Shown: positions 1 through 36,454, numbered from the stretch's first letter. The stretch is 64,000 nucleotides of DNA from Solirubrobacteraceae bacterium (GCA_034665145.1 JAXDGI010000007.1:20356-84355), one strand, 5' to 3'. A program made the numbers and translations. Notes: a model not told the origin generated them from the letters alone.

Positions 1-3000
1 GGCGACCGCTCAGGGCCGAGCCGACCTGGCTCTGACCGTCCGCGCTCGGGACCGTGAGGATCGAGATCGCCCCCGGCGTGCTCACCGCCAGGGTGCCGCC
101 GGTCGCCGCCAGCGTCGAACCGGCGATGGTGATCGAGCCTCCGGCGGTGACGGTGACCGGGCCGTTGGCGGACGTCACCGACGAGCTCGCGGATCCGTAT
201 TGGAGGGTGATGGTGCCGGGCGCGGTCACGGTCGTGCCCGCCGCCGACGCGGCGCTTGAGCCGGTGAGGGCGAGGTCGCTGCTGGAGTGCAGGTACGTCG
301 TGCCCTGAGTCGAGCTCGCGTGCGAACCGATCAGGGTGAGGACGCCTCCGGCGGTCACCGACAGGGCCGAGCAGCCGCTCGTCGAGGTGCACCAGGCGTT
401 CTGACCGGCGGCGTCGCTACCGGTCGCGCCGAAGCTCGAGTCTGAGAACACGAGCGCGCCGGGAGAGCTGATCTGCAGCACCGAGTTGGTGACGTTGAAG
501 CCCGAGAAGGTGTCGGTGCCCGTCACCCCGGTGAACAGGATCGCCGTCACCGAGGAGCCGCTGTAGGTGTCGGGGCCGGCCGTGATCGAGAAGCCCGCCG
601 CGGTGCCCGCACCCGAGATCGTGTCTCCGGAGATCGGATCGGTGATGTAGAGCACGTCGGGGCCGCTGCCGCCGGTGATCTGGCTGGAGCCCTGGCCTCG
701 GGTCAGGTAGACCTTGTTGCTGCCGCTGCCCAGGGTGATCGTGCCGGCCGGGCCGGTGATCGTCTCGTTGCCGTTGCCGCCGTGGATCGTGTCTGACGTG
801 TTGCCGCCGAAGATGACGTCGGGGCCGCCGCCGCCGTAGATCGTCACCGCGCCCGTACCCACGTGCTGGATGATGTTCTGACCGGAGCCGCCCTGACCGG
901 AGTCGCTGCCGTACACCGTGCCCGAGCCGGAGCCGGACACGATGATGCTGTTGCTCCCTCCGCCGCCGGCGATCGAGAGGGTGCCGCTGCCGGCGTCGGT
1001 GAACACGTCATTGCCGGCGCTGCCGGTTCCGTAGACGGGGACCTGCACGCTCTTGTCGATGTTGAGCGTCTCCTGGCAGGGCGCGCTGCTCGTGCAGGCC
1101 TGCCCCGACCAGTCCGCGGTCACCGAATGCACGTGCTGGAAGACACTGGTGCGCCCGAACGCGTCCACCTCGATGATCGCGTCGCCGGCCGAGCCGCCGA
1201 TCTGCTTGATCAGGTAGGCGTCGTTGTTGCCGGCGCCACCGATGTTGCGCTGATTTTCCCGCGAGCCGACGTTGAGGTAGAGGTCGGTCGGCCCAGCGTT
1301 GTTGTTCCATGCGTGCGGGTCGCTCTGGGTGCCGGCCAGCCACACCGGCGCGGGCATCTCCAGATAGCCAATCGTGAAGTTCGCGTCAGCGTCGATCGAG
1401 AAGAAGAAGAAGCTGACGGAGATGTGGACGCTCAGCGTGATCGGCACTGATCCGTTGGTCGAGCTGCCCGAGTCGGCCTTGAAGTCGAAACTGAGGCCGA
1501 CGCTGGCCAGCGAGATGCCGAAGGCGTTGACCCCGACACTGGCGCCGCCGCCCAGCTCGAACCGGTAGGCGTCGGCGCTGCCGAGCATGTAGTGCTGCGA
1601 GCTGACGTGGAACCAGAAGTTGCCCGACAGACCAAAGCTGTCAGAGCCGATGGTCATCCCGCCGTTGAGGTCAAGGCTGAAGTTGCCCGAGCTGTCGAGG
1701 GACAGCGACCCGGCGAGGGTGGCGATACCGAAGAAGCTCATGCTCGCGTTGGCCGACAGCGACCATGTATTCGGGCCAGCCACCCCGACCGCGATGGTTA
1801 GGCCGGCGTTGAAGTTGATGACTTTCAACAGCTCGACCTTGCCGGTGAGGCTGAGGTAGAACGAGCTGGGGGCGATGCCGAGCATCGTCTGCCCGCCGGT
1901 GTTGATCTGAAGGGTCCCGCTGGCGTCGATCGTGAACACCGCGGCGTCGGCGGTGGCGTGGACCTGGAGGCTGAGGGCCAGGCCGCCCGAGTAGACCGAC
2001 GCCGCGCCGCTGGCGCTGAAGTTCAGCGGGCCGAGCACGAACGAGAGCTGGAAGGCGATCTGCAGGCCGCCGGGGCCGATCGTGATCATGGCCGAGCCGC
2101 TGGCGGTGGCGAAGCTCCCGAAGCCGATCGTGGCGGTGATGGCCAGCGTGAAGCCCGGCTGGATGGTCACCGGGTTGGAGGTCCCGAACTGCTGGGCGGC
2201 GCCGGTGGTGTTGAGCTGGACCGTGGCCGTGGCCGAGGCGAAGCTGAGCCCGACGCCGCCGCCGAGCGCGCTCACGTCGACTGAGAAGTTGGCCAGCAGC
2301 CCGCGGCTGTCGATCGAGAAGCCGCTGTTGACGATGTTGATGGCGCCCAGCGGACCGAGGTCCATCGCGCCGTTGACGATCAGGCTGATGCCGGGGTTGG
2401 CGCCGGCCAGGCTGAGCGTGAACTGGACGTCGCCGTTGATGGTGATCAGGCTGCCGACCGTCAGGCTGCCGTGCATCTGCAGCAGGAAGCCGGCGGTCGT
2501 GGTGATCGTGGTGTTGACGACCTGCAGGTTGCCCGACCCATCGCGGGCAAAGCCGCCGAAGTTGCCCAGGCTGTCGGTCGTGGTCGCGAAGGTCTGGATC
2601 GTCTTGGCCGTCGTGAACGTGTTGAGCTCGAGCAGGAAGTCACCGTTCAGGTTCACGCCCGGAATCTGGTCCACGGTGAGGGCCAGGTATACGCGGCCGA
2701 CCACACCGGTCTCGGCTGGCGTCGCCCCGAGGAAGACGGTGAGGTTGAGCTGGCCGGCGAGCGCCCCCAGGAAGGAGATCTGCGTGCCGACGGCACCGGT
2801 GATCGACAGCTGCAACCCGCTCGAGCCCGCGGCCGCCTGGATCTGCACGAAGCCGTTGAGCGTGATCGCGCCACCGATGGTGATCTGAGCGTTGATCTGC
2901 GCCGAGACGTAGACCTGGCCGCCGGCCGGGGCGAGCGGGTTGCGCCCGCCGGTCAGCCCGGGAGCGGAGGCGTAGATCGCGATCGTGGTCGGGTCTCCGG

Positions 3001-6000
3001 GGTGCAGCAGGGGCAGGAACGCGCTCGGGATCTGGAACACCTGGTCCTGCAGGGTGGTGTTGAACATCACCGAGACCGTTCCGCTGATGCTGAACAGGCT
3101 GCCCACCCCGGGGATGCCGAGATCGGCGCCCGCGCCGACGGTGAGGTAGCCCGCGACCCCGGGGTTGGTTCCCGGGGTCAGTCCGGTCTGGATGACCAGC
3201 AGGCCCGTGCCCTGGCCGTAGGTGAGCTTGGCCGAGCCCGCGCCGTAGGAGACCGAGGCCGTGACGTAGATGGTCAGGCCGCCCGGGTTGATGCTGAGCA
3301 AAAAGCCGCCGTCCAGGGAGACGAGCGCAGTCGAGGTTCCCGGCGGGGTGATCGAGGCGGCGCCGGCGATCTGGACCAGGAACGAGAGCGGTTGGAGGTT
3401 GAACGTCTGGGTCGCGTTGGACCCGTTGGGGCCCAGGCCGGGCAGGCTCAGGGTGACGTCGTGCTCCTGCTGGGTGAGGTTGATCTGCAGGGTGCCGCTG
3501 CCGTACAGGAAGATCCCGTAGGGCTGCAGGGCCGAGAAGTTGGTGGCCAGCGTCGCCACGCCCCAGATCTGCGGCCCGCTGGCCACCTGATTGCTCATGT
3601 CGAGCTCGAAGAAGCCCGCCGTGGCGCCGACGGTGCCGAGCTTGTAGATGCTCAGCTGGCCGTTGAAGGTGAGCTTGAAGATCTTGTTGACGGGATCGAT
3701 CTCCAGCTTGACGTCGGCCGAGAGCTGCATGAGCGGGGAGCTCGTGAAGCCGGCGGCGTTGAGGATGATCCCGCCCGAGAGCTCGATGAAGAAGCTCTGG
3801 GCCGGGGCGATGACCGCGAAGGACGCGGTCGACGCGGTGCCCCGGTTGCCGGCGCTGTCGGTCCACCCGCCGGCGGCGAAGGTCGCCTTGACCTGACCGG
3901 CGGTGAACGCGCCCGTGTAGAAGAAGCGGAAGGTGTTAGGACCGATCTGCACGACCGGGTAGCTGCCGGTCCCGGCGACCGGGGCGATCGTACCCAGGCC
4001 GGACCCGCTCAGGGTCATCGTCGTCCCGGTCACCGTCGAGGCGTCGACGGTGTGACCGAGCGTCGGGGTCAGGGCGACGTCGACCCAGGTCCCCGAGCTG
4101 TTGATCGTGTACTGCGAGGCGGTCGGGACGTCGCCGGCGGCGGAGGCCGTCCCCGAGAAGTTGCGCCACGTACCCGCGGTGAAGCTAACGGTGAGGCCGC
4201 CGCCACCGGTGTAACCCGAGAAGAAGTAGCGGTACACGTTGCTGGCCGGATTGGTGGCCGCGCCGAGCTGGACCGGAGCGCCGACGAGGACGAGCGTGTC
4301 ACCCGCGGTGTCGGAGATCGTGAGCTGGTTGCCGGCGCCGATCGATGCGGGATCAACCGATTGGCCGCCGGTCGACGGGTAGGTGACGTCGACCCAGATG
4401 CGTCCGTTGAGCGTGACCTCGTTCTGGACGCCGCCGGCCGATGGAGAGGCGAGCGTGCCCGTCGGCGAGGCGACGGTGAACGTCTCGGTGAAAGCCTGGT
4501 TGACGATCCCGGCGCTGTCGGCGAAGGCGCCGGCCAGGAAGGTGACGGTGTAGGTGCCGACGGCGAGCGGGCCACTGAAGCCGTAGCGCCAAGTATTGCC
4601 ATTGCCCTCGCGGGTCGCAGTCCCGCTCAGCGTGACCGGGGTGCCACCCGGACCGCTGATCTGGATCTCGTTGCCCGTGATGGTCGCCGGATCGATGGTG
4701 TTGCCAACCGTCGGGGTGAAGGTGATCTCGATGTAGCCCTGACCGTTGATGACTCCGGCGCCGATCGTGCCGCCCGCCAGGGAAACCACCGTGCTCGTGC
4801 TCGTCGTCGGATCGATGACGGTCTGCGCGAGGTCGGCCGTGGCGCCGCTGACGGTGAAGCTCTGGGTCGTGCCGAGGTTCGGGGCGTGGGGAGGTCCGCG
4901 GGCCGAGGTCGACGTGATCGTGCCGCCATGGAAGGCCACGGTGACCGCCCCGGGGACGAAGCTGCCGGTCAGCAGGTAGCGGTAGATGCCGTTGCCAAGC
5001 GCGATCGGGTTCGAGCCCGAGACGAAGGTGATCGTGCCCAGGCCGATGCCACCGAGGGTGAACAGGCCGGTGCCGGGAGGGTTGTCGAGCGTGCCGCCGG
5101 TCCCCGGGCTGACCTGGACGTCAAGGTAGGTCTGGCCGGCGGGGAAGTCGGCGACCGGATGCGAGACGACGCTGTTGTACGCGGTCGCGCCGGCCGGGGA
5201 GCCGAAGTAGGACACGGCCCGGTTGGTGAAGGTCACCGACAGCGTGCTCGTCGTCGCCCCGCTGGGCATGACGACGTTGACCGGGATCGAGATGACGTTG
5301 CTGCTCCCGACCTGGACCGGCACGCGGGTGGAGTCGACGGTCACCGTCCACCCGTTGGAGGCGGAGATCGTGATGCCGGCCAGGTTGATCGAGCCCGGGT
5401 CGAGCGTGTAGCCGGTGGGGATACCCCCCGTTCCGTTCTGAGGGATCGTGATCTGGATGGTCGGGTTGACGGCGGACACGACCTGGGTGCCGCTCGGGGG
5501 GGTGGTCGTGGTCAGGACCGAGACCGTGACGTTCCCGATCGTGGGCGCGGTCGGGACGTAGTAGGACCAGCTGTTGGGGATGAAGGTCAGGGTCACCGTG
5601 CCCGTCGGGGCGGCAGCGCCGGTGAGCCAGAAGCGGTAGGTCAGCGTCCCCGATCCGCTGGCGACCTGGGTCGGTGCCTGGGCCAGATTGAGGGCGAGCG
5701 TGCCCAGGCCCGAGCCGCCGAGCACGAACTTGGGGCCGCCGCTGGTGATCGAGCTCGGGTTGATCAGGTAGCCGGCGTCGGTCGGCTCGGTGAAGACGAC
5801 GTCGATCCAGTTGCGGTCGTTGAGGACGTTGACGTCGATCGTGCCGCCCTGGCCGGGGTTGAGGATGACCGCGGTCGGGCCCTGGACGGTGAAGGAGCTG
5901 TGGATGGCGCTCGGGTTCGAGGCGCCGGCGGTGGTGTTGCCCGAGGCATCGGTCACATCGGCGTTCTTGATGGCGCCGGCGGCGATCTGGACGGTCACGG

Positions 6001-9000
6001 TGCCGGGCTGGAAGGTGACGCCGGAGCCGAGCAGGTAGCGGAAGGTCCGCGTCCCGGTCATGTCGATCGCGTGGTAGAGCAGGTCGGGGTCGCTGATCCC
6101 GCCCGAGAATGAGGAGGCGCTGAGCACGACGACCTTGGCCAGGTCGGTCACCGTGTAGACGACGTGGCCATTCACCGTCTGGGAGGTGAGCTGGAGACCG
6201 ACGTGGGAGAAGCCGGTGGCGGTGGCCGCCGCGGCGAGCATGTCCGCGGCGTTGCCGTAGTGGGCAGCACCCGGGTTGAACGTCATCACCGTCTCGGTCG
6301 TCGGTCCGTAGCGCCACACCTGGTGGTTGGTCGTATCGAGGACGAGCGGGACCGAGATCGCCCCGGCGGCGAGGGTGATCGTCTCCATCGGGATCGGGCC
6401 CGACAGCGAGATCGTGCCGGTGATGGCGCTGCCGCCGATGGTGATGTGCGCGCTCGAGGCGAAGATCGAGGCGTAGTCGAGGTTGGCTCCGGTGGCGGCC
6501 GTGTAGGTGATGTCGATGTAGTGCTGGCCGCCCGTGGCATCGGTCTGCAGGCCGGGGGCGGCCGCACCCGTGCCGGCCGCGGTCGACGTGTCGGCGACGT
6601 TGACGTCGACTGCGCCGCCATCGGGAGCCGGGGCGCTGACCGTCGCTCCGGGAGCGGTGGTCGCCGCCGCGGGCGACTGCGCGGGAGCCGCGACATCGAA
6701 GGTGACGGGCTGGCCGGAGGAGTTGGCAAAGCCCATCTGCAGCTTGCCGTACAGGGTGAGGAGCTGGACCTGATCGGGAATGTCGGCCAGGAATAGGACG
6801 ACGACCTTGCCGCTGCTCACCTGGGACAGGTCGGCGTAGAGCTTGCCGCTGATCGAGACGTTGTTGTTGGCGAAGTTGAGCTTGCCCTCGATCATGAACT
6901 TGCCGTCGGTGGAGATCATGATCGTCACCTGGCCATTGAACAGCGCCTGCGACGTGTAGATCGAGTAGATCTCGGCCGAGCCGATGATCGTCATCGGCGC
7001 GCTGAAGGCGGCAAAGAAGTTCGCCTGGCCGCCCGTCGCCCGGGCCTGGGCGGCGACCTGCTGCTGAAGGCTGGTCAGCCACTGGCCGGCGCTCAGCTGC
7101 GTGGGCAGCCCGAACTCGGGATTGCGCAGCGCGAAGGGGTCGGTGATCGACGGCAGCGTCTTGAAGAACTCCACCCCGCCGGAGAAGTTGTTGATGGTCA
7201 GGCCGGTGTTGGGATCGAGCAGGATGCCGCCGGGGATCTCGACGTTGACGAACGCCTCCAGCGGGCCGAGCTGGCTGAGGCCGACCCGGAGCGTGAAGCC
7301 GGCCATGCCGCCGATCGAGAAGCCACCCTGCAGGCCCAGGTAGAAGACCCGGTGCGCGACGGTCGTCGTCGTGTCGGACGGATCGATGATGTTGTAGGCG
7401 CTGTCGAGCTTGAGGATTCCCCCGATCAGGCCGCCGTCGAGCTGGCCGCCGAACAGGTCGCCCTTGACGGTGACCCCGAAGGCGTCGATGCCGATGATGG
7501 GGAACTGGCCCTGGAGCAGCAGCGAGGGGTCGATCTGGATGCCCTGGACGGCGCCCGAGACCTCGAGGCCGCCCAGCCCCTGGATCCCGGTGACGCTGGC
7601 CGACAGGGTGAGGATGAAGTGGCCGGGGTCCTGGGAGATGTGGGGCCACTGGATTCCGATGCTGTCGATGCGGACGGGCAGGAAGGAGGGCCACTGGAAG
7701 GAGCTGCCGGTGGCCGAGCCGACGGTGAGGAAGACACCGAAGTTGCTGCCGGCCGAGAAGCTTCCGTCGCCGAGGAAGGCGAAGTTGCGGGCGGTGCCGG
7801 TGATCTCGAGCGTGCCGATCTTGACGTCGGCGCCCACGCTGGAGAAGGAGACGAGCGGATCACTGGCCCCGGCCCCGGTGTTGAGGTTGAAGTTGGTCGC
7901 GTTCAGCGTCAGGAACGAGCCGAGCGTGATCGACATCTGCGCAACGTGGAACTGGAAGGCGGCGACCTGGCCGTTGGCGCCGAAGGTCACGGTCAGGCGC
8001 AGCGCCTCGGTGTTGGGCGTTCCGTCGGTGTTGAGAGCGCCCGGCAGCGCGCTGATCGTGGCCGAGATGGCCTTGCCGGGCAGGAAGGTCGCGCCGCCCG
8101 AGGCGAAGTAGATCGAACCGGCGGTGACCGGGCTCGAGCCCGAGAAGCTCATCGAGAAGTTCTGGACGCCGACCCGGATGTCCTTGAAGGTGAGGATGTT
8201 GCCCAGTGACACGGCGTTGCCGCTGCCGGAGTTGGACAGCGGGTCCCCGGCCGGCGCGGCGACGCCGTAGTCCAGCTCGGCCTGGCCGAGGGTGAACCCG
8301 TTCTGGCGGATGACCAGGCCGGGGATGAGTCCGGAAGCGGTGCTGGTGGCCGACACGCTGTGTCCGGCGTGCGGGTCATAGGGCCGGATCGTGCCGGTGA
8401 GGTTGAAGGCGGGGAAGTTGATCGTGGCGCTGTTGATGACGACGAGCTGCTGGTCGGCGGGACCGGCGGGGTCGTAGGCGATGGCGATGCCCGCGGCCGA
8501 CAGGTTCAAGACGCCGGGCACGGTGGCGGTCAGCGAGGCGACGCGGAGGCTGAACTTGCCGGGCAGGTTGACGCGGAAGTTGCCGCTGAGCAGCCCGAGC
8601 GCGTCGACCTGGATGTCAAACGTGCCGAGGATCCCGGTGAGGTTGACGCTGACCCCGCTGGAGCTCTGCGCACCCGAGGAGCCTCCGAAGTTCAGCCCGG
8701 CCCGGTCGGCGCCCAGGGCGATGGTCAGGTTGAGCATCCCGTCCTTGAAGCCGACGTCGGCGATCGAGATCGTCGGGCCCTGGAGGCTGATCGGCCCGAG
8801 CGCGATCGTCCGCGGGCTGGTGCCGGCGCCGGGGGCCGTGGGCGAGATGGTGAAGGTCTGGATCTGGCCTCGCTGGTTGACGACCGGAGTCACCCCGGTG
8901 CCCTCATTGGTCTGGAAGCTGCCGGGCAGGAAGGTGAGGGTCACGGTCCCGGCGCCGAACAGGCCCGCGGCTGCGTTGCTCGCCGTCTGCAGGAAGTAGC

Positions 9001-12000
9001 GGTAGGTGACCGAGGTCGCGCCGGCGTCGGTGCCGGCGATGAGCAGCGGCGCCCCGACCAGCACCGGCGTCCCGTTGGCGTTGAGGCGCACGCCGATCAC
9101 GCCGGGTCCACTGAGCATGAAGGGAGCGGTTGAACTGAGCGTGGACTTGTCAATCGGCTTGCCGTCCATGCTGCGGTAGCTGATGTCGAGGTAGCCGGCG
9201 GTGTTGAGCGCGCTTGCGGTCACCGGCTGGCCGGGCGCCGGGTTGGCCAGCGCGGCGACCGGAGCGGCTGCGGCGTTGTCGGTGGCGACGAGCGAGAAGG
9301 TGTCGACCGAGCCGATGTCCTGGACGCCGCCGGTGCCAAACGCGCCGGGCAAAAACTGGACGCTGACCACGCCGGTGGCGTTGGTCGGGAAGCCGGTGAC
9401 CGTGTAGCGCCAGGTGTTGACCTGACCGGCGACGCGGGTCGGGGTGGTCCCGATGACCAGGCCGGGAACGGTCTGGCCGCCGATCAGCACCGAGAACTTC
9501 TGCGTCTGGCTCGTCGTCGGGTCCACCCCGGCGCTGTAGGCAATGTCGATGTGATCGAGCGGGTGGGTGGCCAGGGTCTGGTCTGACAGCGTTGCCCCGG
9601 CCAGCGGGTAGGCGACCGAGGCGGTCGGGAACAGCGCGGCGGTCTGGCCCGGCCCCGACGGGTCGATGCCCGACACGCCGAACACCGAGAAGCTGCCGAC
9701 GGAGAACGACGTCATGTGGAAGCCGGTGGCGGGATCGATCGTGAAGCTGGCGCTGCCGCCGATGCTGAACACCTGCGTCCCCGACACGGTGATGCTCATA
9801 CCGGCGTTGGAGATGGCCAGGGTGAGGGTTCCGCTTGCGGACCGGCTGACGGCCAGCGAGCCGTGGATGTCGAGCACCGAGCCCACGGTGAAATGGACGT
9901 TGGCGACGGTGAGCAGGAACGTGTAGGCGGGGACGAGGTCCGTCGTGCCGCCGGTCGGGCTCAGCGGGGTGGCGGTGGTGTTGATCTGGAAGCTGACCTG
10001 GTCTGCGGTGAGCGTGAGCCCGTCGAGGCCGACGAGGGCGAGCGCGCCCGTCGCTGACAGGACGTAGAGACCGTCGGCCTTGCCCGACCCCGGGGCAAGC
10101 CGGAAGGACAGCGTCGCCTGGTTGATGAGCAGGCCGATCGCGTTGGCGTTCGTGGTCCCGTCGGAGTTGGTGTAGGGGCCGCTGCCGACGAACAGCGACA
10201 GGCCCGTGCCCGAGAAGCTGTTGTTGGACAGGGCGAAGTTGCCCTTGATCTCGAGCAGCCCGCCGAGATTGAGGTTGACGTCCTGGGCGACGACCGCGAA
10301 CGTGGTGGCGGCGTCGATCTTGATCGGGATGGCCACCCCGCCGACGGTGACGACCTGGTCCACGCTGGTGCCCGTCGTGTTGACCTCGAGTCCGAGGTCG
10401 GCGCTGCCGATCGAGCCCGAGGCGGTGCCGAGCGCGATCCCGGCGATCCCGTAGCCGCCGCCGGACTTGGGCAGGACCACGAAGGCGCCGCGCGCGTTGG
10501 AGATCGGGCCGACCGAGCTCGAGCCGTTGAACGCGATGTGGGCCACGCCGATCTCCAGCGTCGGCGTCCCGGTGCCGCCGGCCGACGGCGCCGTCCTCGC
10601 ATACTGGAAGAAGAAGTCCCCGGAGACGGAGTTGCCGGCCAGGGTGACGGTCAGGGCGTCGGCCTCGACGCGAACGTAGGGACCGGCGGCGAGGCTCAGC
10701 GTCTGGGTGGCGGGGCCGCTGGCGCCGGTGTAGTGCAGCGTGTCGCTGACGGCCGAGCTGGTCGTGTTGAACTCGATGTTGAGCGACGTCGCCGCCACCG
10801 AGAAGCCGGGGATCTGGACGAACGGACTGCCGCTCAGCTGGCCGGCGATGCCGCCGGGCAGGAGCTCGAGCGCGCCGGACGCGTTGGTGATGGCGATGCC
10901 GGCCGCGCTCGCCGGCGGATTGACCGCCGTGAAGCCGGCCGTGCCGATGATCAGGCTCGTGTGATCAAAGCCGATGCTGACCACCTTGAGGCCGTTCTGG
11001 GTCGTGGTCTGCTCAAACCAGAAATGGGCGGTGAGGCTCTGGCCGAAGATGGTCAGGTTGACCGGGGCGCTGCTCGTCCCCGCCTCCACGCGGAGGTAAG
11101 GGCCGGCAGGGAGCGTGGTGCCGCCGGTGCCCGTGACGTCGGCGACCGGATTGATGGCCGCCGGGGTGGTGTTGAAGGCGACGGTGACCGAGCCGCTGAA
11201 GGTCAGATACGAGGCGAGGGCAGTACTCGGGGTGAGGGTGGCAGTCAGCTCTCCGGCCACACCGGTGCTGGTCAGCTCCACCGTGCCCGTGGTGATCGTC
11301 GCGGTGAGGAAGGTGGTCGTCCCGTTGCCGAGCGCGAGGCTGAGGTTTGAGACGGTGAGGTAGGCGATGTCGCGCACGGGGTCGCGCCCGACGGTCACAT
11401 CGCCGGTGAGCGTCTGGCCGGCGATCCCCAGCGTGATGCTGTGGCCGCTGACCACGTAGCCCGGAGCGAGCTGGCCCTGTGTCTGGCCGGTCGTGTTGAG
11501 GGCGACCGCGAAGGTGCCGCCGACCGTGACGCCGGGGATGTTGATGGCCACGCCGGCGGTGAGCGAGCCGTAGATCCCGGCCGAGGCGATGGTCAGCGTG
11601 CCGGCGGCGTCGGAGACCACGACGAAGGCGCGCTGGCTCGTGCCGATGCGCAGGCTGCCGTTGGCCAGGGTGACGACCGTCGTGTAGCTGCCCGTGGTCC
11701 CGGTCCGCGAGACGGTCAGGTCACCGGACAGAGTCTGGCCGCCGACGGTGATCTGCGCACCCTGAGCCGAGACGGTGAGGAAGTGGCCGGCGGGCAGCGT
11801 CAGCGTTTGCGTTGCCCCGCCGACGGTGAAGACCTCGTTGACCGCCTCCGGGGTTCCGGCCGACTGCAGCGTGTTGAAGGTGATCGTGACCGCGTTGACC
11901 GCGACGGTGGCCGCGCCGCCCAGGTTGACCGTCACGCCGCCGGAGAGCTGACCGGCCGTCCCGTCGGGGGTGATGAGCAGGAGCGCCGAGCCGCCCGTGA

Positions 12001-18000: not shown

Positions 18001-21000
18001 CCGGGATCCCGTCCTCGCCGGGGCCGGTAGCGACCTGACTGAGCGTGAAGTCACCGCTGATCGTCTGGCCGAGCGCGCGCAGGGTGGCGCCGATCGCCTC
18101 GAGGCTGAGGTAGGGGCCGGCGGGCAGATCGAGGGAGAGAGCCTGGCCCCCGACGGTGAGGCTCGTGGCCACAGCCGTCGAGCCGGTGTTGATGGCCAGC
18201 GTATAGGTGCCGGTGAGCGACACGCCGAGCGAGGGGTCGAGCGAGAGCGAGGCGCTGAGCGTGCCGGCGATCGCGCCGGCGCTGAGCTGCATCAGGCCCG
18301 ACACGCCGGAGGCCGAGACCGCTCCGCCGATGAGGCTGAGGGCACCGTTGCTGATTCCGATGGTGAGCACCGAGGCGCCCGCACTGTCCTTCGTGGCAAC
18401 GAGTGCGAGGTTGCCGGTCAGCTGCTGGCCGAGGATGGTGAGGGCCGCTCCGGTGGCGTCGAGGCGCAGATAGGGCCCGGCGGGTAGCCCCTGAGCAGCC
18501 GCGCCGGTCGTGTTGACGTCCAGCGAGAACGTGCCCGAGAGCGCGACGCCGGGCACCGGCGCGAGGACGACGGACATCCCGATCGAACCGGCGATGCCGG
18601 CGCTGGAGATGACGAAGGTTGAGGTGGTGGCCGACTGGGTCGCGGTCAGAATCGGTGTCCCGGTGCTGCCGCCGAAGGCGCCGCTGAGGTTCGCGGTCTG
18701 GATCTGCAGCTGCGGGGCGCCGCCCACGATCTGGCGGCTGACGGTGATGTCGCCCGTCAGGGTCTGCCCGAGGATCGTCAACGACACGCCGGTTCCCGCG
18801 ACCTGCACGAACGGACCGGGAAGCAGGGCCAGGTCAACCTGCGTGCCGCCGACCGTGAAGCTGTCGATCAACGCCGCCCCGGTGTTGACCTGCAGGCCCA
18901 GGGTGCCGGTCACGGTGACACCGGGGACGGTGAGGGCCACCGCGGCGGCGAGCGTGCCGGCCACCTGCCCGGCGTCGACGAACAGTGCACCGGTGACGCC
19001 GGTGATGGAGAGTGGGCTCGAGCTGCCGCCGAGCACGAGGGAGCCATTGGCGACCCCGAGCTCCAGGATCGTGCCGGCGTTGTGCGAGGTGACCTTCTGC
19101 ACAGCGAAGTCGCCGGTCAGGGTCTGTCCGCCAACGGCGAGCGTGGCGCCCGTCGCCTCCAGGCGTAGGTAGGGACCGCTCGGGACGTCAAGGGCGACCG
19201 TTGTCGTCCCCACGGTAAAGCTCTGGCTGACTGCGCTCGTCGTCGTGTTGACCTGCAGGACGAAGGTTCCGGAGAGCGCAGCGGCGGTCGGCAGGGTGAG
19301 GCCGACGTTGCCGCTCAGCGAGCCGGCCACGCCGCCCCCGGTCAGGAGCAGAACACCCTGGCCGCCGGTCAGCGAGGCGGTCGCGCCCGAGCCACCGAAG
19401 CTCAGCGCCACGTTGGCGGCGACGATCGTCGTCGCGGTGGACCCGTCGGGCAGCGTCGCGTTCTGGATTGAGAAGTCCCCAGTCAGCGTCTGGCCCAGGA
19501 TGGTGAGGGTCGTCTGGCTGCCGGTCACCCGCACGAAGGGGCCGGCGGGGAGATCGAGCACGACGGTCTGACCGCCGAGGGTGACCGAGCTCGAGACCGG
19601 CGCGACACCTGTGTTGATGGCCAGCGCGTACGTCCCGCCGAGCGTCACGCCGGGGACCGAGACCCCGAGCGTGCCGCTGATCGTGCCGGCCAGACTGCCC
19701 GCACCCATCTGCAGGGTCCCGGCGGCGCCGGTGATGGCCACCGCCCCCGAGCCGAGCGACAGGCTGACGCCGGTGGCGGTGATGGCCAGCCCGGCGCTGT
19801 CGGTGCTGAAGGCGAAGTTGCCGTTCAGGGTCTGGCCGAGGAGACCGAGCTGGCCGCCCACGAGCTGGACCGAACCGGGGTTGGGACCGGCGAAGGTCAC
19901 AGCGACTCCGGGGCCGCTGGAGCTCGGGATGGTCAGCGTCTCGTTCAGCACCTTGCCGGTGTTGTTGAAGGCGACGGTCACCGTGCCGGTCAGGGTCAGC
20001 CCGCTCACACCGAGCACGGTCGCCGTGCCCGCGGCGACAAACGCGTAGGTCGACCCGATCTGGATGAGCCCGACCTGGGCGCCGCTGATGAGGATGCCGG
20101 TGGCCAGCGGGTTGGGCGCACCGCTGGCCAGTGTTCCCGGACCCTGGCCCAGGAACACGCTGAGGCCGTTGCCGGCGAAGGCCTGGGCCGCGGCGCCGTC
20201 GGCGAGCGTGTAGCTGCCCGCAGAGACGTTGCCCTGAATCGTGACGAAGTTGCCGACGTTGAAGGTGAGGCCGTCGATCGAGAGCCTGAAGTACGGCGTC
20301 TCAGACTGGCCGAACTGAACCTCGATCGGCTGGCCGCCGACGGTCACCGTGGTGTCGATGGTCCCGCCGGTTGTCGGGTCGTGGATCGTGTTGACCCGGA
20401 GGACCGCGTGGCCGCCGACGGTCACCGAGCTCGAGCCGCCGGTGACCGTCGCCTGGAGGACCCCGGCCGCGCCTGTGGCGGTGAGGACCAGCGCGCCCGA
20501 TCCGTTACTCAGCGTCGCGCCGCCGGCCGAGGCCGAGACGTTGGCCGCCGCGATCACCGTCTGGGCGCTGCTCCCAGTGCCCTGGCGCGAGAAGGTGAAG
20601 TCGCCGTGCAGGGTTCCGCCGGCCAGGCCGAGGTCCACCCCGCTGGCGGTGACGCTGACGTAGGGGCCGGCCGGCAGGGTGAGGGTCGTGGTGCTCGAGC
20701 CGATCGTGAACGGCTCGGTCACGGCCGTCGGGATCGTGCTGATCGCCATCGAGTAGGTGCCGACGCCGAGGGTGACACCGGACGGGAGCGAGAAGGTGAC
20801 GCCCGAGATCGACATCGCACCGGCGATCCCGGCGCGGGTGATGAGGAGCTGGCCCGTCCCGTCGGCGACGGTGACGGCGCCACCGCCGAGGCTGAGCAGC
20901 ACGCCCTCGCTGCTGCTGTTGCTGAAGGCGACCTTCAGCGCCGGGGCGCCCGTGGCGTCGGTGCCGCGCTGCAGGACGAAGTCGCCGCTCAGGATCTGGC

Positions 21001-24000
21001 CGGCCACCGTCAAGGTGGTCCCGGTGCCCTCGATGGCCAACAGCGCGGACGCCGGATGGGTGTCGATCGCGACGGTCAGGCCGGTGCCGAAGGCGATCCC
21101 CGGGAGGCTGGTGGCAACCGTGGCGGTCAGGTTCCCGGCCACCCCGGCCGAGTCGACCGTGAGGGTGCCGGCCGCGCCGCTGACCGTGACCAGACCGCCG
21201 CCGAGCGACAGGGCACCGTTGGCCAGTGTCACCATGGTGGCGCTGCTCGTCGTGCTCAGGGTGACGTCCCCGGTGATGACCTGATCAAGGGCGGTGAGGG
21301 TGACGCCCGTGCCCGCGACGCTGATGTAGCGGCCGGTGGGCAGGGCCAGCGTGATCGGGGTCCCGCCCAGCGCGAAGACATCGTTGACCGGACCATTGGT
21401 CTGGTTGAATTGGACGGTGAGTGCGCCGGTCAGGGTGAAGCCGGGCACATGGAGAGTCAGGGCCCCGCTGGCCGTCCCGGCGAGCCCGGCCGAGCTGACG
21501 AGCACGGCCCCGCTGCCGTGACTGAGGGTGGCGATGCCGCCGCCGATGGTCACGTTGAGGTTGGTGACCGCGGCGATGACGATCGGCGCGCTGCCGGCGT
21601 CGGTCGTGCGCTGGAAGCCGAAGTCGCCGGTCAGCGTCTGGGTGCCGACGGTCAGCGTGGCCCCGATCAGCTCAGCGCGCAGGTAGGGGCCGGCGGGGAG
21701 GTCACCGACCGCGGCCGGGGTCGTGTTGATCGCCACCGAGATCGTGTTGGCGGTGAGGCCGGTGAGCGGGCTGGAGACGAGGTGGGCGCTGAGCGAGCCC
21801 GCCACCCCGGCGCTGGTGACGGTCAGCGAGCCAGCGATCGTGTCCAGCGAGAGGAAGGTCGTCGTCCCGTCACCGACGGTCAGCGTGGCGCCGGCGACGG
21901 TGAGGACGGTGGTGGTGACTCCGGCCGTGGTCGACCGCTGGAGGGTGAGGGTGCCGGTGAGGCTCTGGGCGCCGATGGTGATCGTCGCGCCGCCGGCGGT
22001 GAGCGAAAAGAAGTTGCCGGCCGGGACGGTGGTGGGCTGGCCGCCGATCGTGAAGCCCGGGGTGGCCTGACCGGTCGTGTTGAGCAGAAGGGTGAAGGTG
22101 CCGCTCACCGAAGCACCAGGGATGGTGACCGCGACGGTCCCGCTCAGTCCGCCCGCTACGCCCGCGGCCGAGATCTGCAGCTGGCCCGATCCGTTGGTCA
22201 GCGTGGCCAGCGGGGGTCCTCGCGAGCTGACGTTGCCGTTGCCGTCCGAGAGCGAGACGGAGGCGTTGGCGATCGTGACTGAGATCGTGCCGGCGGTATC
22301 AGTGAGGGCGAGGTCACCCGTCACCGTCTGACCGAAGACGTTGAGGTTGAGGCCGAGGCCGCCCACCGAGACCGACGGCGCGGTGGCCGTGGCCACGTCC
22401 TGGCTTCCCTGGAAGACAAGCGGCAGCGAGGTGCCCGAGCCGGGCAGGGCGACCGTCTCGTTGAAGGTGTTCTGGAAGGCGTTGATGCGCACGCGGCCGG
22501 TCCCCGAGGCGCTGACGCCGTTGGTCCCCACCAGGGCGACGGTGCCCGAGGCATCCAGCGCGTACTTCCCGCTGTTGTCGGTGAACAGGACGACATTGGC
22601 GTTGGTGATGAGTAGGCCCACGGCCAATGGGTTGGTGTCGCCGTTGGCGAGCAGACCGGGGCCGTTGCCGAAGAAGACGGTGAGCCCGCTGCCGGCAAAC
22701 GTGCTCCCGTGCAGACCGTTGGAGGCGACGACGCCGTCGGTGAGGCTGACGCTGCCCGACAGCCAGATCGAATTGCCGATCTGGATGGTCAGGTCCGAGA
22801 TGGAGACGCTGAACAGGTTCCCCTGACCAGACCCGTAGTCGACCGTGAGCTGCTTGCCCCCGAGGCTGACCGTGGCGTTGATGGCCGCGCCGGTGGTGTT
22901 GATCTGGAGGATCACGTTGCCGCCGGCGGTGAAGCCGGAGCCACCCACCGCCGCCGTCCCCGACACGTAGCCGGCAATGCCGGGATGGGCGCTGTCGGTG
23001 GAGACCACGATCAGTCCCTCGCCATCGGAGACGGTCGGCGAGGAGGCGCTGCCCAGCCAGACCGATACGCCGCTCATCCCGACGATCGTGGTCGTTGCGC
23101 TGGCCACCGACTGCTGCTGGAAGAGAAAGCTGCCGGCCAGCGAGCCGACGGTGTTGCTCGTCCCGGGGGTGATGACCGCGGTCTTGGGCACGGTCACCGC
23201 GGCCTGGATATAGGGCCCGGCTGCAATCGCGGTCGTGTCACCGCTCACCGTCACCGGAGCGCCGGTCGTGTTGACCTGGATCTTGGCCGTCAGACTTCCG
23301 CTGGGCGCGAACCCGGGGAGGGCCACCGTCGCGCTGGCGCCGATGTCAGCGGCGACACCCGCCGAGCTCAGTTGCAGGGACCCGCTGGCGTTGGTGATCT
23401 GCAGGTAGCTACCGAAGCTCAGCGCGACCGCCGAGCCGGTGATGGTCACGCCGCCACCGCCGGCGGCCAGCGTGAACGTGCCGCTCAGGCTGGCCGAGCC
23501 GACGGTCAGCACCGGAGTGGGCGCGGTCCCCGAGACGGCCATGGTGAAGTGACCGCCGGTTCCCGAGCTGGGCAGCGAGACGTCGCCGGTCACGGCGCCA
23601 CTGGCCGTGATGCCCGGGACCGCCAGCGTCAGTGCCGACGCGCTGAAGCTGCCGTGGAATCCACTGGTGGTATCGGCGGCGAGGGTGGCTGAGCCGCCGG
23701 TGATGGAGGCCAGGCCGCCGCCGAGCGCAGCGGCGACATTGGTCAGGGTGAGGGAGACGCCATTGCTCGACGGTGTGACGATCACGTCGCCGCTCAGCTG
23801 CTGTCCGAGCAGGGCGACGGTGATGTCCTGGCCGCTGAAGTGCGAGAACGGAGTCGTACTGCTGGCCGCCCCCGGGACGTTGACCGTATAGGCGCCGGCG
23901 CCGACCTGGATCTGGCGGGCGACCGGGGTGGTCTGGGTGTTGCGCTGGACGCCGACCAGGCCGGTGAGCGTGACGCCTGGCAAGCCGGTGAGCGCCCCGA

Positions 24001-27000
24001 GACCGCTGGCCTGCAGCGTGTAGGAGTGGTCGGGCTCGACGACGAGGCCAAGGCCCGCGCCGCTGACGGTGAGCTGCGTCCCCGTGCTCGGACCGATCGC
24101 GACGAGCACGCCGGTGGCCCCGATGAGCAACTCTGTCGCCCCCGACGGCCCCGTCCCCGGACTCCTGGCCACGGCGAAGTTGCCGGCCAGCGAGAACCCG
24201 CCGACGGCGAGCGTCACGCCGGTGCCTGTGAGCGCGGCGGCCCCGGCCACGACCGGCGCCGTCGTCGCCCCGGCTTCAGGCAGGGTCACGTCAGAGCCCG
24301 TCGTGTTCAGCTCGGCGCGGAACGCGCCGGTGAAGCTCAGGTCGGAAACGTTGACGACGGTGGCGTCCCCCTCAGCGCGCATGGCGAACGTGCCGTTGGG
24401 CTCGAGCACGAAATGGGCGAAGGCGCCCGAGCCGCCGAGTTGGAGACCAACGTCCTGGGCCGAGCTGGACCCGCGCTGGCCGAGGAACAGAGACGCGCCC
24501 GTCACGTCGATCGTGGTCAGCTGGCTGGCCAGGTCGCGCGTGAAGGTGAAGGCCCCGGTCACATCGCCGAGTGGAGTCTGGAGCGTGGGCGAGCCCGTGG
24601 CCGTGAGGGTCGACACGGGGACGTCGGCGGACGGGGTCGTGAAGTGAGCGATCTGGCTGCTGCTTGTGTTGATGCTGATGCTGAGCGTGAGCGCGCCGTT
24701 CAAGCTCAGGGGCGCGAGCAGAGCGGGCAGCGCGCCCGAGACCGTGCCGGTCGCGGCGAACGTGCCATCGGCGTTGATCTGCGCGGCGGCCGAGACGGAG
24801 GTGCCGGTGATCGAAACGGCGATCGCCGAGCCCGAGCGCGAGAAGCTCAGCGCGCCGCTGAGATCGAGGAAGGCGGGGAGCTCGAGCGCCCCGTTGCCGG
24901 CGATCGAGAAGGACGGCGTGGCCGTGGTGGTGTCAAAGGCGACGGCGAGCGACGCGACGAGCGTGAGGCCCGGGACGCCCACCAGCCGGGCCGCCCCGGT
25001 CACCGAGCCGCTGGCGCCTGTTGTTCCCGTGGTGAGCGTCCCCACCGCGCCGGTCACCGTCACGGCGGCTGAGCCGGCGGCGATCTGGGCGCTCGCCCCG
25101 GTGGCCGCGACGGTGAAGGTCGCGCCCGAGACGGTGAGCGCGAACTGGCCGTTGAGGGCGCCCACGGCGCCCAGCGTGAGGGCGGCGGTGCCGCTCAGCG
25201 ACGTCCACGGGCCGGTCACTCCGGTGGGCTGGGCCATGGCCAGAACGACGGTTCCGGCCCCGGTGTCGATCGTCACCGGCGCGGCCGAGAGATCGCCGAG
25301 ACCGTCGTAGGCGGCGTGCCATCCGGTCCCGGTCAACGTGAGTGAGCCGGCGCCCGCGACGGCCACGTCACCGGTGGCAAGAACGGCGAATGTGGGACTC
25401 CCGCCCGCGTCGGGAGTGCGGGCGACCAGACCGAGGCTGGCGTTGCTCAGCGATGCCGTCGGGCCGCTGGTCCCGGCGGTGAGGGTCGCGCTGACGCCCG
25501 TCGCGCCGAGCGTGGTCTGCATCGTCGTGCCGTTGTCGGAGTAGGTGACCTTCAGGCTCGAAGCGCTGAGCGTCACGAAGTTGCGGATGCTGATGCTCGG
25601 CGAGGCCAGCGTGACGGTCAGGGTGCCGGCGGTCGCCGCCTGGCCGGCCAGCGTGTAGGTGCCGGTGACCGTCCCGAAGGTTGCGTTGAACGGTCCGCTC
25701 GTTCCGGTGTCGATACCCCCGCCGCTCGAGCTGATGGTCACCGTGCCGGCGAACCGGGTGTTGGCCCCGGTGCCGGTGATGCTGATGTTCGAGAAGCTCA
25801 GGGAGGGAGCGCCGAGCTCGAGCACCCCGCCGATCGTGAGGTCGCTGGGCGCGGTGATCGTCGTCGTTCCCGTGAGGGCGCCCGACACGTACTGGTTGAG
25901 CTCGGTCTGGACGAAGGCGAGCAGGTCGGAGAGCGGGCTGCTCGCGGTGAAGTAGGTGGAGAAATGCGGCAGCCCGGCGCTGACGATGCCGGTGCTCGGG
26001 TTATAGGCCGAGGTGATGGCGACGGGTGCGCCGGCCGGCGGGAGGTAGTAGATGCTGGGCGAGGCGGCGCCCTGGGCGACCGTGATGGACAGCTGAGGAG
26101 CGACCGCGAACTGCTCGATGAGGGCGCCGGTCACGGTGTCGACCGCGGTGAGGTCGTAGGCGGAGGACAGCGCGTTGAGCCCGGCCACGGAGACGGTGGA
26201 GACGGTCACACTGACCTCGGCGTCGTGCGGCAGGCTGCCGGGCGCGAAGGTCAGGGTGGCGTTGCCCGCACTGATCGAGCCGCCTTGCGCGGCCAGGATC
26301 AGAACAGGTCCATAGGTGACGGGGGGTCCTCGGGCGCCCAGCGTTCCCGAGTATGTGGCGCTCACACCTTGCAAGGCGCCGGCTGACGAGGTGGCTCCGA
26401 CGCCCGGTGGCGTCGCCGCGGTGGCCTGGGTCAGGTCACCGGCGCCCGCGGACGGGGCGGCCCCGGCGGCGCTGGGCACGATCCCGGCAACGGTGCTGGG
26501 AGCCGGCGCGCCGCTGCCCGCGGTGGGGCTGCCGGACACGGCGACGTTGGCGGCGGCGAGCAGGGCCGGGTCGGCGCCGCTGCCGTCAAGCGCGGTGGAG
26601 CCAGCGCCGGCGTTGCCGGTGGCCGCGCCGACAGCGCTCAGTCCGGCGGTGACGAACGTGCCGCCGGTGGTCGCGGCGGCGAGCTCGATGGCCGGCGCGC
26701 TGAGGGCGCCGGTCATGGCCGGAGCCGCGGTGGGCGCTTCGGTGGCGGCGATGGTGGCGACGGCGGCGCTGCTCTGCACGCCGGCGGTACCGCTGTAGGC
26801 GATGTTCGATGTGCCCGCGGGCTCCGCCGTCGAGCCGCCCGAGGCCCCCGAGCCGCTGCCGGTGATGGTGGCCGGCCGCGGAGTCACGCTCGCCGACGAC
26901 GAGCCGGCCGAGTTCGAGCTGTCCGTGCCGTTCGACCCGCCGGTGGTGCTCGAGCCGCTGCTGTCAGCGGGCGGGGCGCTCGGCGATTGTCCGCCGCCGC

Positions 27001-27307
27001 CCGTGGGCGACGAGCCCGAGCCCGACGGACTCGACGGACTCGACGGACTCGACGGCGAGGAGCCGGGCGGCACGGTGGCCACCTGCGGCGCGACGGTCGC
27101 GCTCGCCCCGCTGCTGTCGGCGCTGGTCGAGGCGCCGCTCTGGATCTGCTGATCGGTCGGGGAGGGCGGTGCGCTGATTTGCGAGGAGCTCGGGTCAGCC
27201 GGCGCGGCGGTACTCGTCGGACTGCTGGTGGAGACCGGAGTGCTGTCCGAGCTGGGGGTGGCCGCCGGTGTGTCGGTGGCGGCGGGCGTCGGGGCCGGGG
27301 TGGGGGT
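1..27307 (-). CDS. Giant repetitive surface/secreted protein (adhesin-like), at least 9,102 codons, 3' end outside the window
   Basis: The minus frame with codons ending at positions 2 mod 3 translates to coherent G/T/S/A/V-rich beta-type protein wherever I translated it. The ORF track has no minus-strand ORF terminating in this frame between 1 and 27307, which implies no internal stop. The long plus-strand ORFs in register with it are antisense shadows. Confidence 0.95.
645..1040 (-). repeat. RTX/hemolysin-type Ca-binding-like Gly-rich nonapeptide repeats
   Basis: GSAGNDVF, GGGGSNSI, GGSGQNII, YGGGGPDVIFGGNTSDTIHGGNGNETITG, GSGSNKVYL, TGGSGPDVLYI. Confidence 0.75.
3860..9600 (-). repeat. 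About 9 Ig-like repeats with (Y/W)(I/L/V)D(V/I)x(F/Y) and (Y/W/F)R(Y/F) motifs, in two blocks (9600-8870 and 6530-3860)
   Basis: DHIDIAY ~9550, GYLDISY ~9190, HYIDITY ~6515, NWIDVVF ~5805, TYLDVQV ~5125, GYIEITF ~4730, IWVDVTY ~4395, TWVDVAL ~4085, each followed by a YRY-like motif. The Ig fold is an inference. Confidence 0.7.
9900..25500 (-). repeat. Array of about 30-35 protein-level beta-rich repeats of ~115-125 aa, interrupted by the FG-GAP block
   Basis: Recurring landmarks LPAGP(Y/F)LR and GQTL(T/S)G(D/N)F; examples near 19540, 19170, 18810, 18470 and 18110 give a period of ~340-370 nt. The count is approximate. Confidence 0.85.
15365..16810 (-). repeat. FG-GAP/VCBS beta-propeller repeats (six clear, one degenerate)
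   Basis: DVNGDGFPD 16783, DINHDGLLD 16600, DLNGDGNSD 16222, DVNGDHLTD 16087, DVNGDGLPD 15736, DVNGDGLPD 15562, degenerate LTGSSQPD ~15395; most are followed by an (L/V)(Y/W)LN-type strand. Confidence 0.9.
25949..26290 (-). other. ZU5-like domain ending in an HFS autoproteolysis motif
   Basis: GGSISAGNATLTFAPGSLPHDAEVSVT...AYDLTAVD...IYYLPP...GIVSAGLPHFSTYF; HFS codons at 25966-25958. Confidence 0.75.
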
Positions 27308-35824: not shown

Positions 35825-36454
35825 ATGCAGGTCAGGGTTCGTCTGTTCGCCGCGCTGCGCGAACGCGCCGGAGCCGGGGAGTTGGAGCTCGAGCTTCCCC
35901 ACGGCGCGCTGGTCCGTGACGCGCTGCGCCAGGTGAGCGCGCTGACCCAGGGGGTTCCGGTGGTCATGGCGGTCAACCACGAGTACGCCGGCGAGGACCG
36001 GGTGCTCGCGCCCGGGGACGAGCTGGCCCTGATCCCGCCCGTTTCCGGCGGCGCGGTGGGCGTCATCCACGTGCGGATCACTGAACAGGCGTTGCGGCTT
36101 GACCCGCTGCTTGACCGGGTGCGTGATTCCCGGGCCGGCGCGGTGGTCACGTTTCTCGGAGTGACCCGTGAGGTGGCGGCGCTCGAATACGAGGCCTACA
36201 CCGAGATGGCCTCAGCCAAGCTGAGCGAGATCGTCGCCGCCGCCGTCGAGCGCCACGGGCTCTGCGCCGCCGCCGTCGAACACCGGATCGGGACCGTGGC
36301 ACTGTCCGAGCCCTCGGTGGCCATTGCCGTGTCCGCCCCGCACCGCGCCCAGGCCTTTGCCGGCGGTCGGGAGATCATCGATGAGATCAAGGTTCAGGTC
36401 CCGATCTGGAAGAAGGAGGAGGGCGAGTGGGTGGACGGCGTGAGTCCGAGCTGA
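35825..36454 (+). CDS. moaX: Fused molybdopterin synthase MoaD-MoaE (MoaX-like)
   Basis: VRLFAALRE...ALIPPVSGG (MoaD) followed by GAVVTFLG, LEYEAY, HRIG, VPIWKKE (MoaE). Confidence 0.9.
   Translation: MQVRVRLFAALRERAGAGELELELPHGALVRDALRQVSALTQGVPVVMAVNHEYAGEDRVLAPGDELALIPPVSGGAVGVIHVRITEQALRLDPLLDRVRDSRAGAVVTFLGVTREVAALEYEAYTEMASAKLSEIVAAAVERHGLCAAAVEHRIGTVALSEPSVAIAVSAPHRAQAFAGGREIIDEIKVQVPIWKKEEGEWVDGVSPS

Follow-up and report, generated by a model that had tools for sequence, protein, structure and literature searches.

The RTX adhesins of Gram-negative bacteria (LapA, MpIBP, FrhA) are built around a giant repeat extender composed of BIg domains, to which ligand-binding modules, C-terminal RTX repeats, a C-terminal signal for the type I secretion system (T1SS) and an N-terminal retention plug are added, while fibrillar adhesins typically measure 1-5 k amino acids (aa). 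In this work, we analyzed a stretch of 64,000 nucleotides from a Solirubrobacteraceae bacterium (GCA_034665145.1, JAXDGI010000007.1:20356-84355, that is, C7:20356-84355; the whole stretch is hereafter called the window), a member of the Gram-positive order Solirubrobacterales, whose minus strand carries a gene for a protein of ~11.5 k aa, longer than typical fibrillar adhesins. Fibrillar adhesins, including the 'periscope' surface proteins, have been described in Gram-positive bacteria (Monzon et al., 2021, PMC8286594; Whelan et al., 2021, PMC8201768), and giant genes coding for more than 10,000 aa have been surveyed (West-Roberts et al., 2023, bioRxiv 10.1101/2023.11.21.568195; 'huge proteins', PMC11573180); in the former survey, such genes from outside Omnitrophota came most commonly from Actinobacteriota, and continuous beta structures of great length were predicted (West-Roberts et al., 2023). 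Two further reports concern the cell-proximal part of such proteins. Zhang et al. (2012, PMC3482391) united the ZU5-superfamily autopeptidases with GPS/GAIN and Nup98 and proposed that they sit N-terminally, at the base of large filamentous surface proteins and toxins of bacteria, and the bacterial GAIN-like MAIN domains were shown experimentally to cleave HFS between Phe and Ser with the fragments staying associated, for which shear-triggered release was proposed (Brogan and Rudner, 2026, bioRxiv 10.64898/2026.05.12.724683).

Our results show that the giant frame is a real, conserved, very large protein-coding gene of an uncultured soil Solirubrobacterales bacterium. We consider it probable that this is one giant gene, intact or freshly knocked out in this genome, and that its product is a fibrillar-adhesin-like surface appendage. 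Functionally the protein resembles both fibrillar and RTX adhesins, yet it qualifies for neither class, because it has no catalogued stalk or adhesive domain and no LPXTG motif, T1SS genes are lacking, and it comes from a monoderm. Without being categorically new, it represents a rare but precedented kind of giant bacterial surface protein: like the surveyed giants, the gene is rare, exceeds 10 k aa and is largely unannotated. Unlike the Omnitrophota giants, the protein gave no SecA or DEAD match in Pfam scans, its repeat differs, it is far smaller than the Omnitrophota genes of 30-85 k aa, and in place of many transmembrane segments only an N-terminal hydrophobic segment stands out, with no 19-residue window of the whole protein reaching a mean hydropathy above 2.2.

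The giant open frame and its conservation

One minus-strand frame is open, stop to stop, from window position 27307 to the left window edge (9,102 codons), as the first-pass annotation had noted and as the list of open reading frames (ORFs) confirms when open ends are allowed; in that list the first GTG of the frame, at 27082, gives 9,027 aa over window 2..27082 (-). The gene is missing from the ORF track because its stop lies outside the window, as had been supposed: in the whole contig the frame ends at C7:14141-14143, 6.2 kb past the left edge, which adds 2,071 codons (C7:14144-20355) and brings the total to 11,173 codons with zero internal stops. The proposed size of at least 9,100 codons was thus borne out, and was an understatement. 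The chance of an open frame of 11,173 codons in DNA of 70% GC corresponds to ln P ~ -216, and the GC contents at the three codon positions (GC1 0.60, GC2 0.57, GC3 0.93) are the usual coding signature of this genome, where the longest other frame measures 1,621 aa and the profile of the 118-aa repeat described below matches the giant frame alone. Upstream of the open frame, and separated from it by a single in-frame TAG codon, an ATG at window 28165 (-) opens 285 in-frame codons, so that the figure of about 9,390 aa given earlier for the part within the window is correct (285+1+9,102). With the TAG read as the Ser codon found at this position in another sample, the intact gene would comprise 11,459 codons or residues, in ~34 kb. 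The host had been taken for an actinobacterium, and genomes of the same genus are indeed titled Solirubrobacteraceae or Solirubrobacterales, which belong to Actinomycetota.

The assembly is a metagenome-assembled genome (MAG) of 4.4 Mb fragmented into 299 contigs, the gene is repetitive, and Logan contigs break within its linker; all this would favor an artefact of metagenome assembly, in which distinct pieces were joined into a chimera or the repeat array was collapsed or expanded. Repeat-driven misassembly is unlikely, however, because protein-level identities among the repeats lie at only 20-48%, a divergence too great for such an error. Furthermore, window 7400-27196 is covered by Logan contigs of 0.8-2.7 kb from two independent soil runs, each with 0-3 mismatches and no indels, and collinear orthologs exist in other genomes, one of 11,704 aa and another spanning ~34.5 kb within a 2.5-Mb contig. 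With 20 kb of the body reproduced by independent assemblies, the misassembly which the first-pass annotation had named as a risk is scarcely credible. The tiling contigs contain 19 single-nucleotide polymorphisms (SNPs), 10 synonymous and 9 nonsynonymous, none of which creates a stop, a pattern that fits moderate purifying selection.

The ortholog in a genome of the same genus (G001) is a single intact frame of 11,704 aa, collinear repeat by repeat with the window protein over body aa ~450 to 11,100 (body numbering starts after the TAG), with identities of 30-49% in the rod formed by the repeats and 51-61% in the last 1,500 aa. Since each repeat has its own positional ortholog in G001, the array is old and has not been homogenised. 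A genome of the same family and another genus (G164) holds an open frame of 12,213 aa, sampled at both ends. The closest relative, the Solirubrobacterales MAG MFD01213.bin.2.34 (G041; 81-84% identical), is collinear over ~34.5 kb (within C2:664001-704000, in the 2.5-Mb contig); this copy displays one frame of 3,907 aa and then at least 30 frame changes. The first of these lies near aa 3,550, and their density is highest beyond aa ~6,000. These unevenly spread changes are either consensus errors of long reads or real decay.

Architecture and continuity of the N-terminus

The features of the gene within the window are the following (window positions; the strand is minus throughout; the repeat copies were delimited by hidden Markov model (HMM) iteration and repeat alignment):

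27311..28165, minus strand: N-terminal 285 codons, with the ATG, RRNR plus FWFGVVGLLALCLPYAALATASA, an Arg-rich region and the start of the linker
28001-28069, minus strand: hydrophobic segment FWFGVVGLLALCLPYAALATASA, 23 residues, following the RRNR motif
27308..27310, minus strand: single in-frame TAG, inside the linker (...APTPAPSTA, stop, TPTPAPTPAA...)
26348..27307, minus strand: Pro/Thr/Ser/Ala/Gly low-complexity linker, body aa 1-320 (33% Ser+Thr, 12% Pro, 0.3% Lys+Arg)
25943..26341, minus strand: beta domain of ~135 aa, body aa ~323-455, starting with RGPP and ending with LPHFSTYF; candidate ZU5/GAIN-type tether
25112..25942, minus strand: transition segment, body aa 456-732, beta-rich, 41-48% identical to G001
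16868..25111, minus strand: repeat array I, 22 tandem copies of ~118 aa, body aa 733-3480
15269..16867, minus strand: FG-GAP (integrin-alpha-like) beta-propeller inserted in the rod, body aa 3481-4013 (Pfam)
9842..15268, minus strand: repeat array II, 16 further 118-aa copies, body aa 4014-5822
3260..9841, minus strand: divergent beta-rich middle region, body aa 5823-8016, with weak internal repeats of 23-34% identity (self-BLAST)
1490..3259, minus strand: ~5 degenerate 118-aa copies, body aa 8017-8606
1..1489, minus strand: body aa 8607-9102, up to the window edge, with the first RTX block and the first CX5C pair
752-838, minus strand: first RTX nonapeptide block, aa ~8824-8852 (Pfam)

The TAG interrupts an otherwise continuous Pro/Thr/Ala linker, and the first in-frame start after it is a GTG 75 codons downstream, without a signal peptide. 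A genuine TAG would uncouple the export signal from the body and would make the gene a very recent pseudogene in this strain only, without consequence for the gene family; this is consistent with the presence of the codon in the assembly, with a genome where ARAGORN found no tRNA with a CUA anticodon, with the many frame changes in the related G041 copy, and with the absence of the gene from most relatives, which fits a costly, often-lost gene. Conversely, in one independent soil-metagenome run (X5), with DNA 99% identical to the window, a Logan contig of 272 nt crosses the position and has G instead of the window's T at 27309, so that the coding-strand codon is TCG (Ser) and not TAG, as read from mismatch bracketing and the clipped end. 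Logan contigs of nine soil runs were aligned to the linker stretch, and those of eight runs break within 27197-27345, X5 alone crossing the codon; the high-GC linker is therefore a poorly covered, error-prone stretch. The remaining 11,173 codons contain no other stop or indel, and the population SNPs lean synonymous. Furthermore, N-terminus, linker and next domain form one uninterrupted frame in G041, G001, G164 and the Solirubrobacteraceae MAG BP_495 (G002). The intact gene of 11,459 codons is deduced from the TCG in X5 together with this continuity in the relatives, and the TAG itself would be explained by an error in this poorly covered stretch of very high GC content or by a nonsense mutation of very recent origin. 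A recent pseudogene is thus the less likely account, albeit one that deserves serious weight.

Programmed recoding of the TAG by pyrrolysine or a suppressor was ruled out, as there is no tRNA-CUA, and so was its decoding as selenocysteine, since selA/selB and tRNA-Sec serve UGA and not UAG. The selA and selB genes lie side by side at window 36427-39311 (+), unconnected to the TAG of the giant gene, and ARAGORN found two tRNA-Sec genes elsewhere in the genome, which indicates that the organism decodes UGA as selenocysteine at some sites. The same program reported an odd tRNA-like gene with a two-base anticodon (tRNA-???, match c[36473,36563]).

The N-terminus reads MNILRMP...SRRNR-FWFGVVGLLALCLPYAALATASA-KAAL, a positively charged n-region followed by the hydrophobic segment of 23 residues, and the 285 codons to which it belongs have a GC3 of 0.87. 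A conserved Arg-rich region then ends in ...APIVVNTQP, where the Pro/Thr/Ser linker starts; the linkers of G001, G002, G041 and G164 are alike in kind and different in sequence. A conserved motif, (S/T)RRxR(F/Y)WF, precedes the hydrophobic segment (window 28001-28081, -) and resembles the twin-arginine motif; it is common to the N-termini of the window gene, G001, G002 and G041, and G164 is without it. Twin-arginine (Tat) export, which the conserved RRxRFWF motif brings to mind, was judged unlikely for a protein of 11-k aa.

The repeat rod, the distal end and the HFS domain

The body contains 38 clear copies of the 118-aa repeat (22 + 16) and ~5 degenerate ones, 20-48% identical to each other, with the consensus ITVANVSLSLGSGSAGLTITGASGALVLSSAGVAGSLSGTVTVGVPGVTLSGTLTLAINTTGAAVNETLTVGGSSVTLTLPAGPYLSVSATGVTLTIGGQTLTGDFAFSR, in which hydrophobic residues alternate with Thr, Ser and Gly; owing to indels, simple autocorrelation gave no sharp period for this main repeat. 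The repeat has no match in Pfam, NCBIfam or PDB sequences. An AlphaFold2 model of three consecutive units, for which the alignment consisted of other repeat triplets of the same protein, reached a predicted local distance difference test (pLDDT) of 84 and a predicted template modelling score (pTM) of 0.76, and is all-beta, with ~9 strands per unit and runs of hairpins of 12-16 residues. This model suggests that three units form a rigid continuous body, not loosely linked beads. Foldseek searches of the model against PDB and BFVD found no significant match, the best ones (TM 0.25) being porins, LptD and the apoB belt, that is, generic meander sheets. By contrast with the databases of named families, a profile built from 36 copies and searched against 1.84 billion representative proteins found the repeat in 1,875 of them at E<=0.001 and in 474 at E<=1e-30, single proteins carrying as many as 49 copies. 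The few named carriers are called 'hypothetical' or 'calcium-binding' and come from Propionibacterium sp., Verrucomicrobiota, Rariglobus and an Olavius symbiont, and three large repeat-bearing proteins displayed no Pfam domain at all.

Between the two arrays, the propeller is recognized by several consecutive repeats above the Pfam thresholds: FG-GAP_3 in 5 stretches (E 5.3e-29, 101 bits, cut-off 26.9) and FG-GAP in 6 stretches (E 1.1e-27, 95.9 bits, cut-off 22.1). NCBIfam gave no above-threshold match, and its single sub-threshold match, XAC2610, falls inside the propeller. The middle region (aa 5823-8016) has no Pfam match and no family assignment, and aligns collinearly with G001 at 40-53% identity, apart from the stretch around aa 6900-7500. 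Beta repeats with periods of 22 and 66 residues occupy aa 8900-9650; HMM iteration failed to define a second and a third repeat family (aa 5900-7850 and 8900-9650), and a fourth HMM seed drifted into the main 118-aa repeat. Beyond the window lie a region that is 51-61% identical to G001, further RTX blocks, with four more stretches in the last 794 aa (Pfam HemolysinCabind, E 4e-12), and a (Lys-Pro)-rich C-terminal tail, PKPKPKPKKHKPKPKKHKAKPKKHK..., with 41% Lys+Arg and 27% Pro, which is present in G001 and absent in G164. Translation of the full contig to this C-terminus, proposed in the first-pass annotation as a way to find a sorting signal, revealed no LPXTG-type motif nearby. In phmmer searches against PDB sequences, the first 8,000 aa had no match, and the last 3,285 aa had a single marginal match, to the RTX part of CyaA (E 0.0013).

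The protein is rich in Gly (14.5%), Thr (13%), Ala (12%) and Ser (10%), and poor in charged residues (1.2% Arg and 1.0% Lys, 2.2% together, and 1.0% Glu). Its 11,173 residues include only eight cysteines, arranged as four CX5-6C pairs in the distal third, at body aa 8738/8744 (~window 1076-1096), 8973/8979, 9737/9744 and 10191/10198; these pairs likely form small disulphide loops.

At the base of the rod, the small beta domain ends with an HFS motif (window 25958-25966, -; Phe449/Ser450 of the body). LPHFS is invariant in the window protein, G041 and G002 despite an overall identity of only 49%, and G164 has ALPHFSHY at the equivalent position, so that an H-x-S/T motif, as expected for ZU5, GAIN and MAIN domains, closes the domain and is conserved in relatives. 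As in the MAIN and ZU5 systems, this H-F-S ends a small beta domain beside the part that would anchor the protein to the cell. The usual order of MAIN proteins is signal, cargo, MAIN and C-terminal anchor, and the giant protein presents the mirror image: anchor, linker, HFS domain and giant cargo. Unlike ZU5 and GAIN domains, the HFS domain has no ZU5 sequence-profile match, and its putative fold comes from a low-confidence model: it matched nothing in Pfam, including ZU5, even at E<=1, and its profile retrieved no relevant chain among PDB sequences at E<=10, solved ZU5 and GAIN structures included. The best PDB fold match of its AlphaFold2 model was ankyrin ZU5A-ZU5B (3ud2_A; prob 0.99, E 0.053, non-significant, TMq 0.44), and ZU5-ANK (3f59_D) ranked 12th (prob 0.94, TMt 0.52), which is suggestive of a ZU5 fold, not proof of it. 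In G001, the base carries a Peptidase_M10 domain (matrixin, HELGH) and then Ig repeats of the ASH/HYDIN type in place of the HFS domain (L008:2520-6416, -; G001:C247), which indicates that the base module of the giant is swappable and suggests that proteolysis at the base may be the conserved function or requirement.

Regarding the order of modules proposed in the first-pass annotation, the linker, the arrays of repeats (given there as ~120 aa and here as ~118 aa), the FG-GAP propeller and the RTX repeats were recovered, as was the conserved HFS motif; the ZU5 label attached to that motif did not hold up as well, given the model with a pLDDT of 50, the non-significant E value and the lack of sequence-profile support.

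Function, neighboring genes and significance

The N-terminal hydrophobic signal, the Pro/Thr/Ser linker, the FG-GAP propeller, the RTX blocks, the Cys pairs, the scarcity of charges and the beta-rich rod point to an exported extracellular fiber, as far as sequence features can tell. Most likely, the protein is a cell-tethered, possibly force-releasable, fibrillar adhesin-like appendage. It would be exported through its N-terminal signal or signal-anchor by the Sec pathway and tethered by its N-terminal region, with a Pro/Thr/Ser-rich linker of ~600 residues crossing the wall. The small beta domain ending in LPHFS would probably self-cleave between Phe and Ser as ZU5, GAIN and MAIN domains do, after which the body of ~11,000 residues would be held non-covalently and could be shed under force. 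This body consists of an array of at least 38 all-beta repeats of 118 residues, predicted to be a rigid rod on account of the pTM of 0.76, with an FG-GAP propeller mid-way. At the distal end, which is the most conserved part, the Ca-binding RTX blocks and the polycationic Lys-Pro tail could bind anionic surfaces, and anionic soil or cell surfaces may be the targets of adhesion. The gene immediately downstream, coding for a collagen-like protein, and other secreted-protein and lipoprotein genes conserved with the giant would be its partners.

This downstream neighbor (C7:13332-14117, -) starts 24 nt past the stop of the giant on the same strand and codes for a secreted collagen-triple-helix protein of 261 aa, with ~19 GXY triplets and a globular C-terminal part of ~115 aa; it is 44% identical to the gene at the same position in G001, and in G164 the collagen-like gene starts at the giant's stop. 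Next come two paralogous secreted proteins of ~450-480 aa (L001:8663-13212, -), 71% identical and without Pfam matches, and then a small membrane protein and a lipoprotein with a LAACGSS lipobox, before sulfate-assimilation genes. Counterparts of the ~450-aa secreted protein (53% identical) and of the lipoprotein (46%) lie downstream of the giant in G001 as well; as they are conserved there, these downstream secreted genes may code for accessory factors. Upstream of the giant lie housekeeping genes (ornithine cyclodeaminase, carboxyltransferase, methylmalonyl-CoA mutase, MoaD/E, SelA/SelB). No type I secretion genes (ABC, MFP, TolC) were found near the giant, both flanks being made up of metabolic enzymes or small secreted proteins.

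A bolder extension of the appendage reading can be put forward: instead of forming a chain of beads, the 118-residue units would fuse into a continuous amphipathic beta-sheet rod or tube of well over 100 nm, a fiber fold for which no solved structure offers a counterpart, standing on a reversed GAIN-like latch that cleaves HFS between Phe and Ser and sheds the body under load, and forming, with the collagen-like trimer and the accessory proteins, an undescribed appendage of Thermoleophilia. We regard this picture as speculative and rather improbable in its entirety.

An alternative use of the same parts would be that of a released exoprotein resembling a polymorphic-toxin weapon, in which the ZU5-type domain frees the filament and the distal C-terminus acts on other cells. 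N-terminal ZU5 autopeptidases have been described at the base of large filamentous toxins with beta-propellers (Zhang et al., 2012, PMC3482391), RTX blocks are present, and conservation is highest in the C-terminal 1,500 aa; however, this C-terminus is collinear between species and not swapped, the Pfam and NCBIfam scans found no toxin, RHS, SpvB or HINT domain, and the next gene is that of the collagen-like secreted protein and not a small immunity-like gene. We therefore consider a toxin very unlikely.

Several observations weigh against a fibrillar-adhesin-like appendage encoded by an intact gene. The window assembly carries the TAG, in a genome without a suppressor tRNA, and together with the frame changes of G041 this means that the gene may be dead in some lineages. 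It is also rare, being present in 2 of 151 sampled genomes of the order (the window genome and G164), and it was not found in the few metatranscriptomes searched. The N-terminal segment may be either cleaved or retained. Over about 90% of its length, the protein matches nothing in Pfam, NCBIfam or PDB sequences; there is no LPXTG-type motif near the C-terminus, and the Pfam scans detected no known adhesin tip domain. For the HFS domain, the AlphaFold2 model (three sequences) is poor, with a pLDDT of 50, and the fold matches to ankyrin ZU5 stay at TM 0.44-0.52 and E 0.05-0.35. Finally, the function of the giant protein, and adhesion in particular, are matters of inference. Thus, of the fibrillar adhesin or surface appendage proposed in the first-pass annotation, the exported-fiber features stand, and adhesion, for which neither a known tip domain nor a wall-anchor motif speaks, remains the conjectural part.

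Comparison with the known classes of adhesins places the appendage beside both. Like the fibrillar adhesins, the giant is very long and predicted to be exported, has a stalk of tandem beta repeats combined with other modules and a low-complexity linker that would span the wall, and is a variable accessory gene. It displays the stalk that characterizes fibrillar adhesins (Monzon et al., 2021), with a repeat outside the catalogued stalk families. Unlike them, its repeats are old and positionally orthologous between species instead of near-identical, and it has neither LPXTG or another known wall anchor nor, in Pfam scans, a catalogued adhesive domain. With the RTX adhesins it shares a giant repeat extender, putative ligand-binding modules and RTX nonapeptides near the C-terminus, which are probably Ca-dependent. 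It differs from them in its monoderm host, its N-terminal Sec-type signal, an extender that is not made of BIg domains, and the lack of nearby ABC, MFP and TolC genes.

Few proteins exceed 10,000 residues, and hardly any of them has been characterized. The positionally conserved repeats of this one yield good alignments for structure prediction, and the intact ortholog of 11,704 aa and the open one of 12,213 aa make it well suited to study. The case further illustrates how such genes escape notice in ORF tracks and fragmented metagenome assemblies, here because the frame runs open across the window edge, one stop codon is doubtful and long-read copies are riddled with frameshifts. Its candidate self-cleaving latch has an orientation that mirrors that of the recently described bacterial MAIN domains, and its repeat family, which makes up ~40% of the length of the protein, is spread over several phyla, unnamed in databases and without a matching solved structure. 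Taken together, this giant is built mainly from an uncharacterized, widespread repeat, with a plausible reversed latch of the GAIN/ZU5 type at its base.

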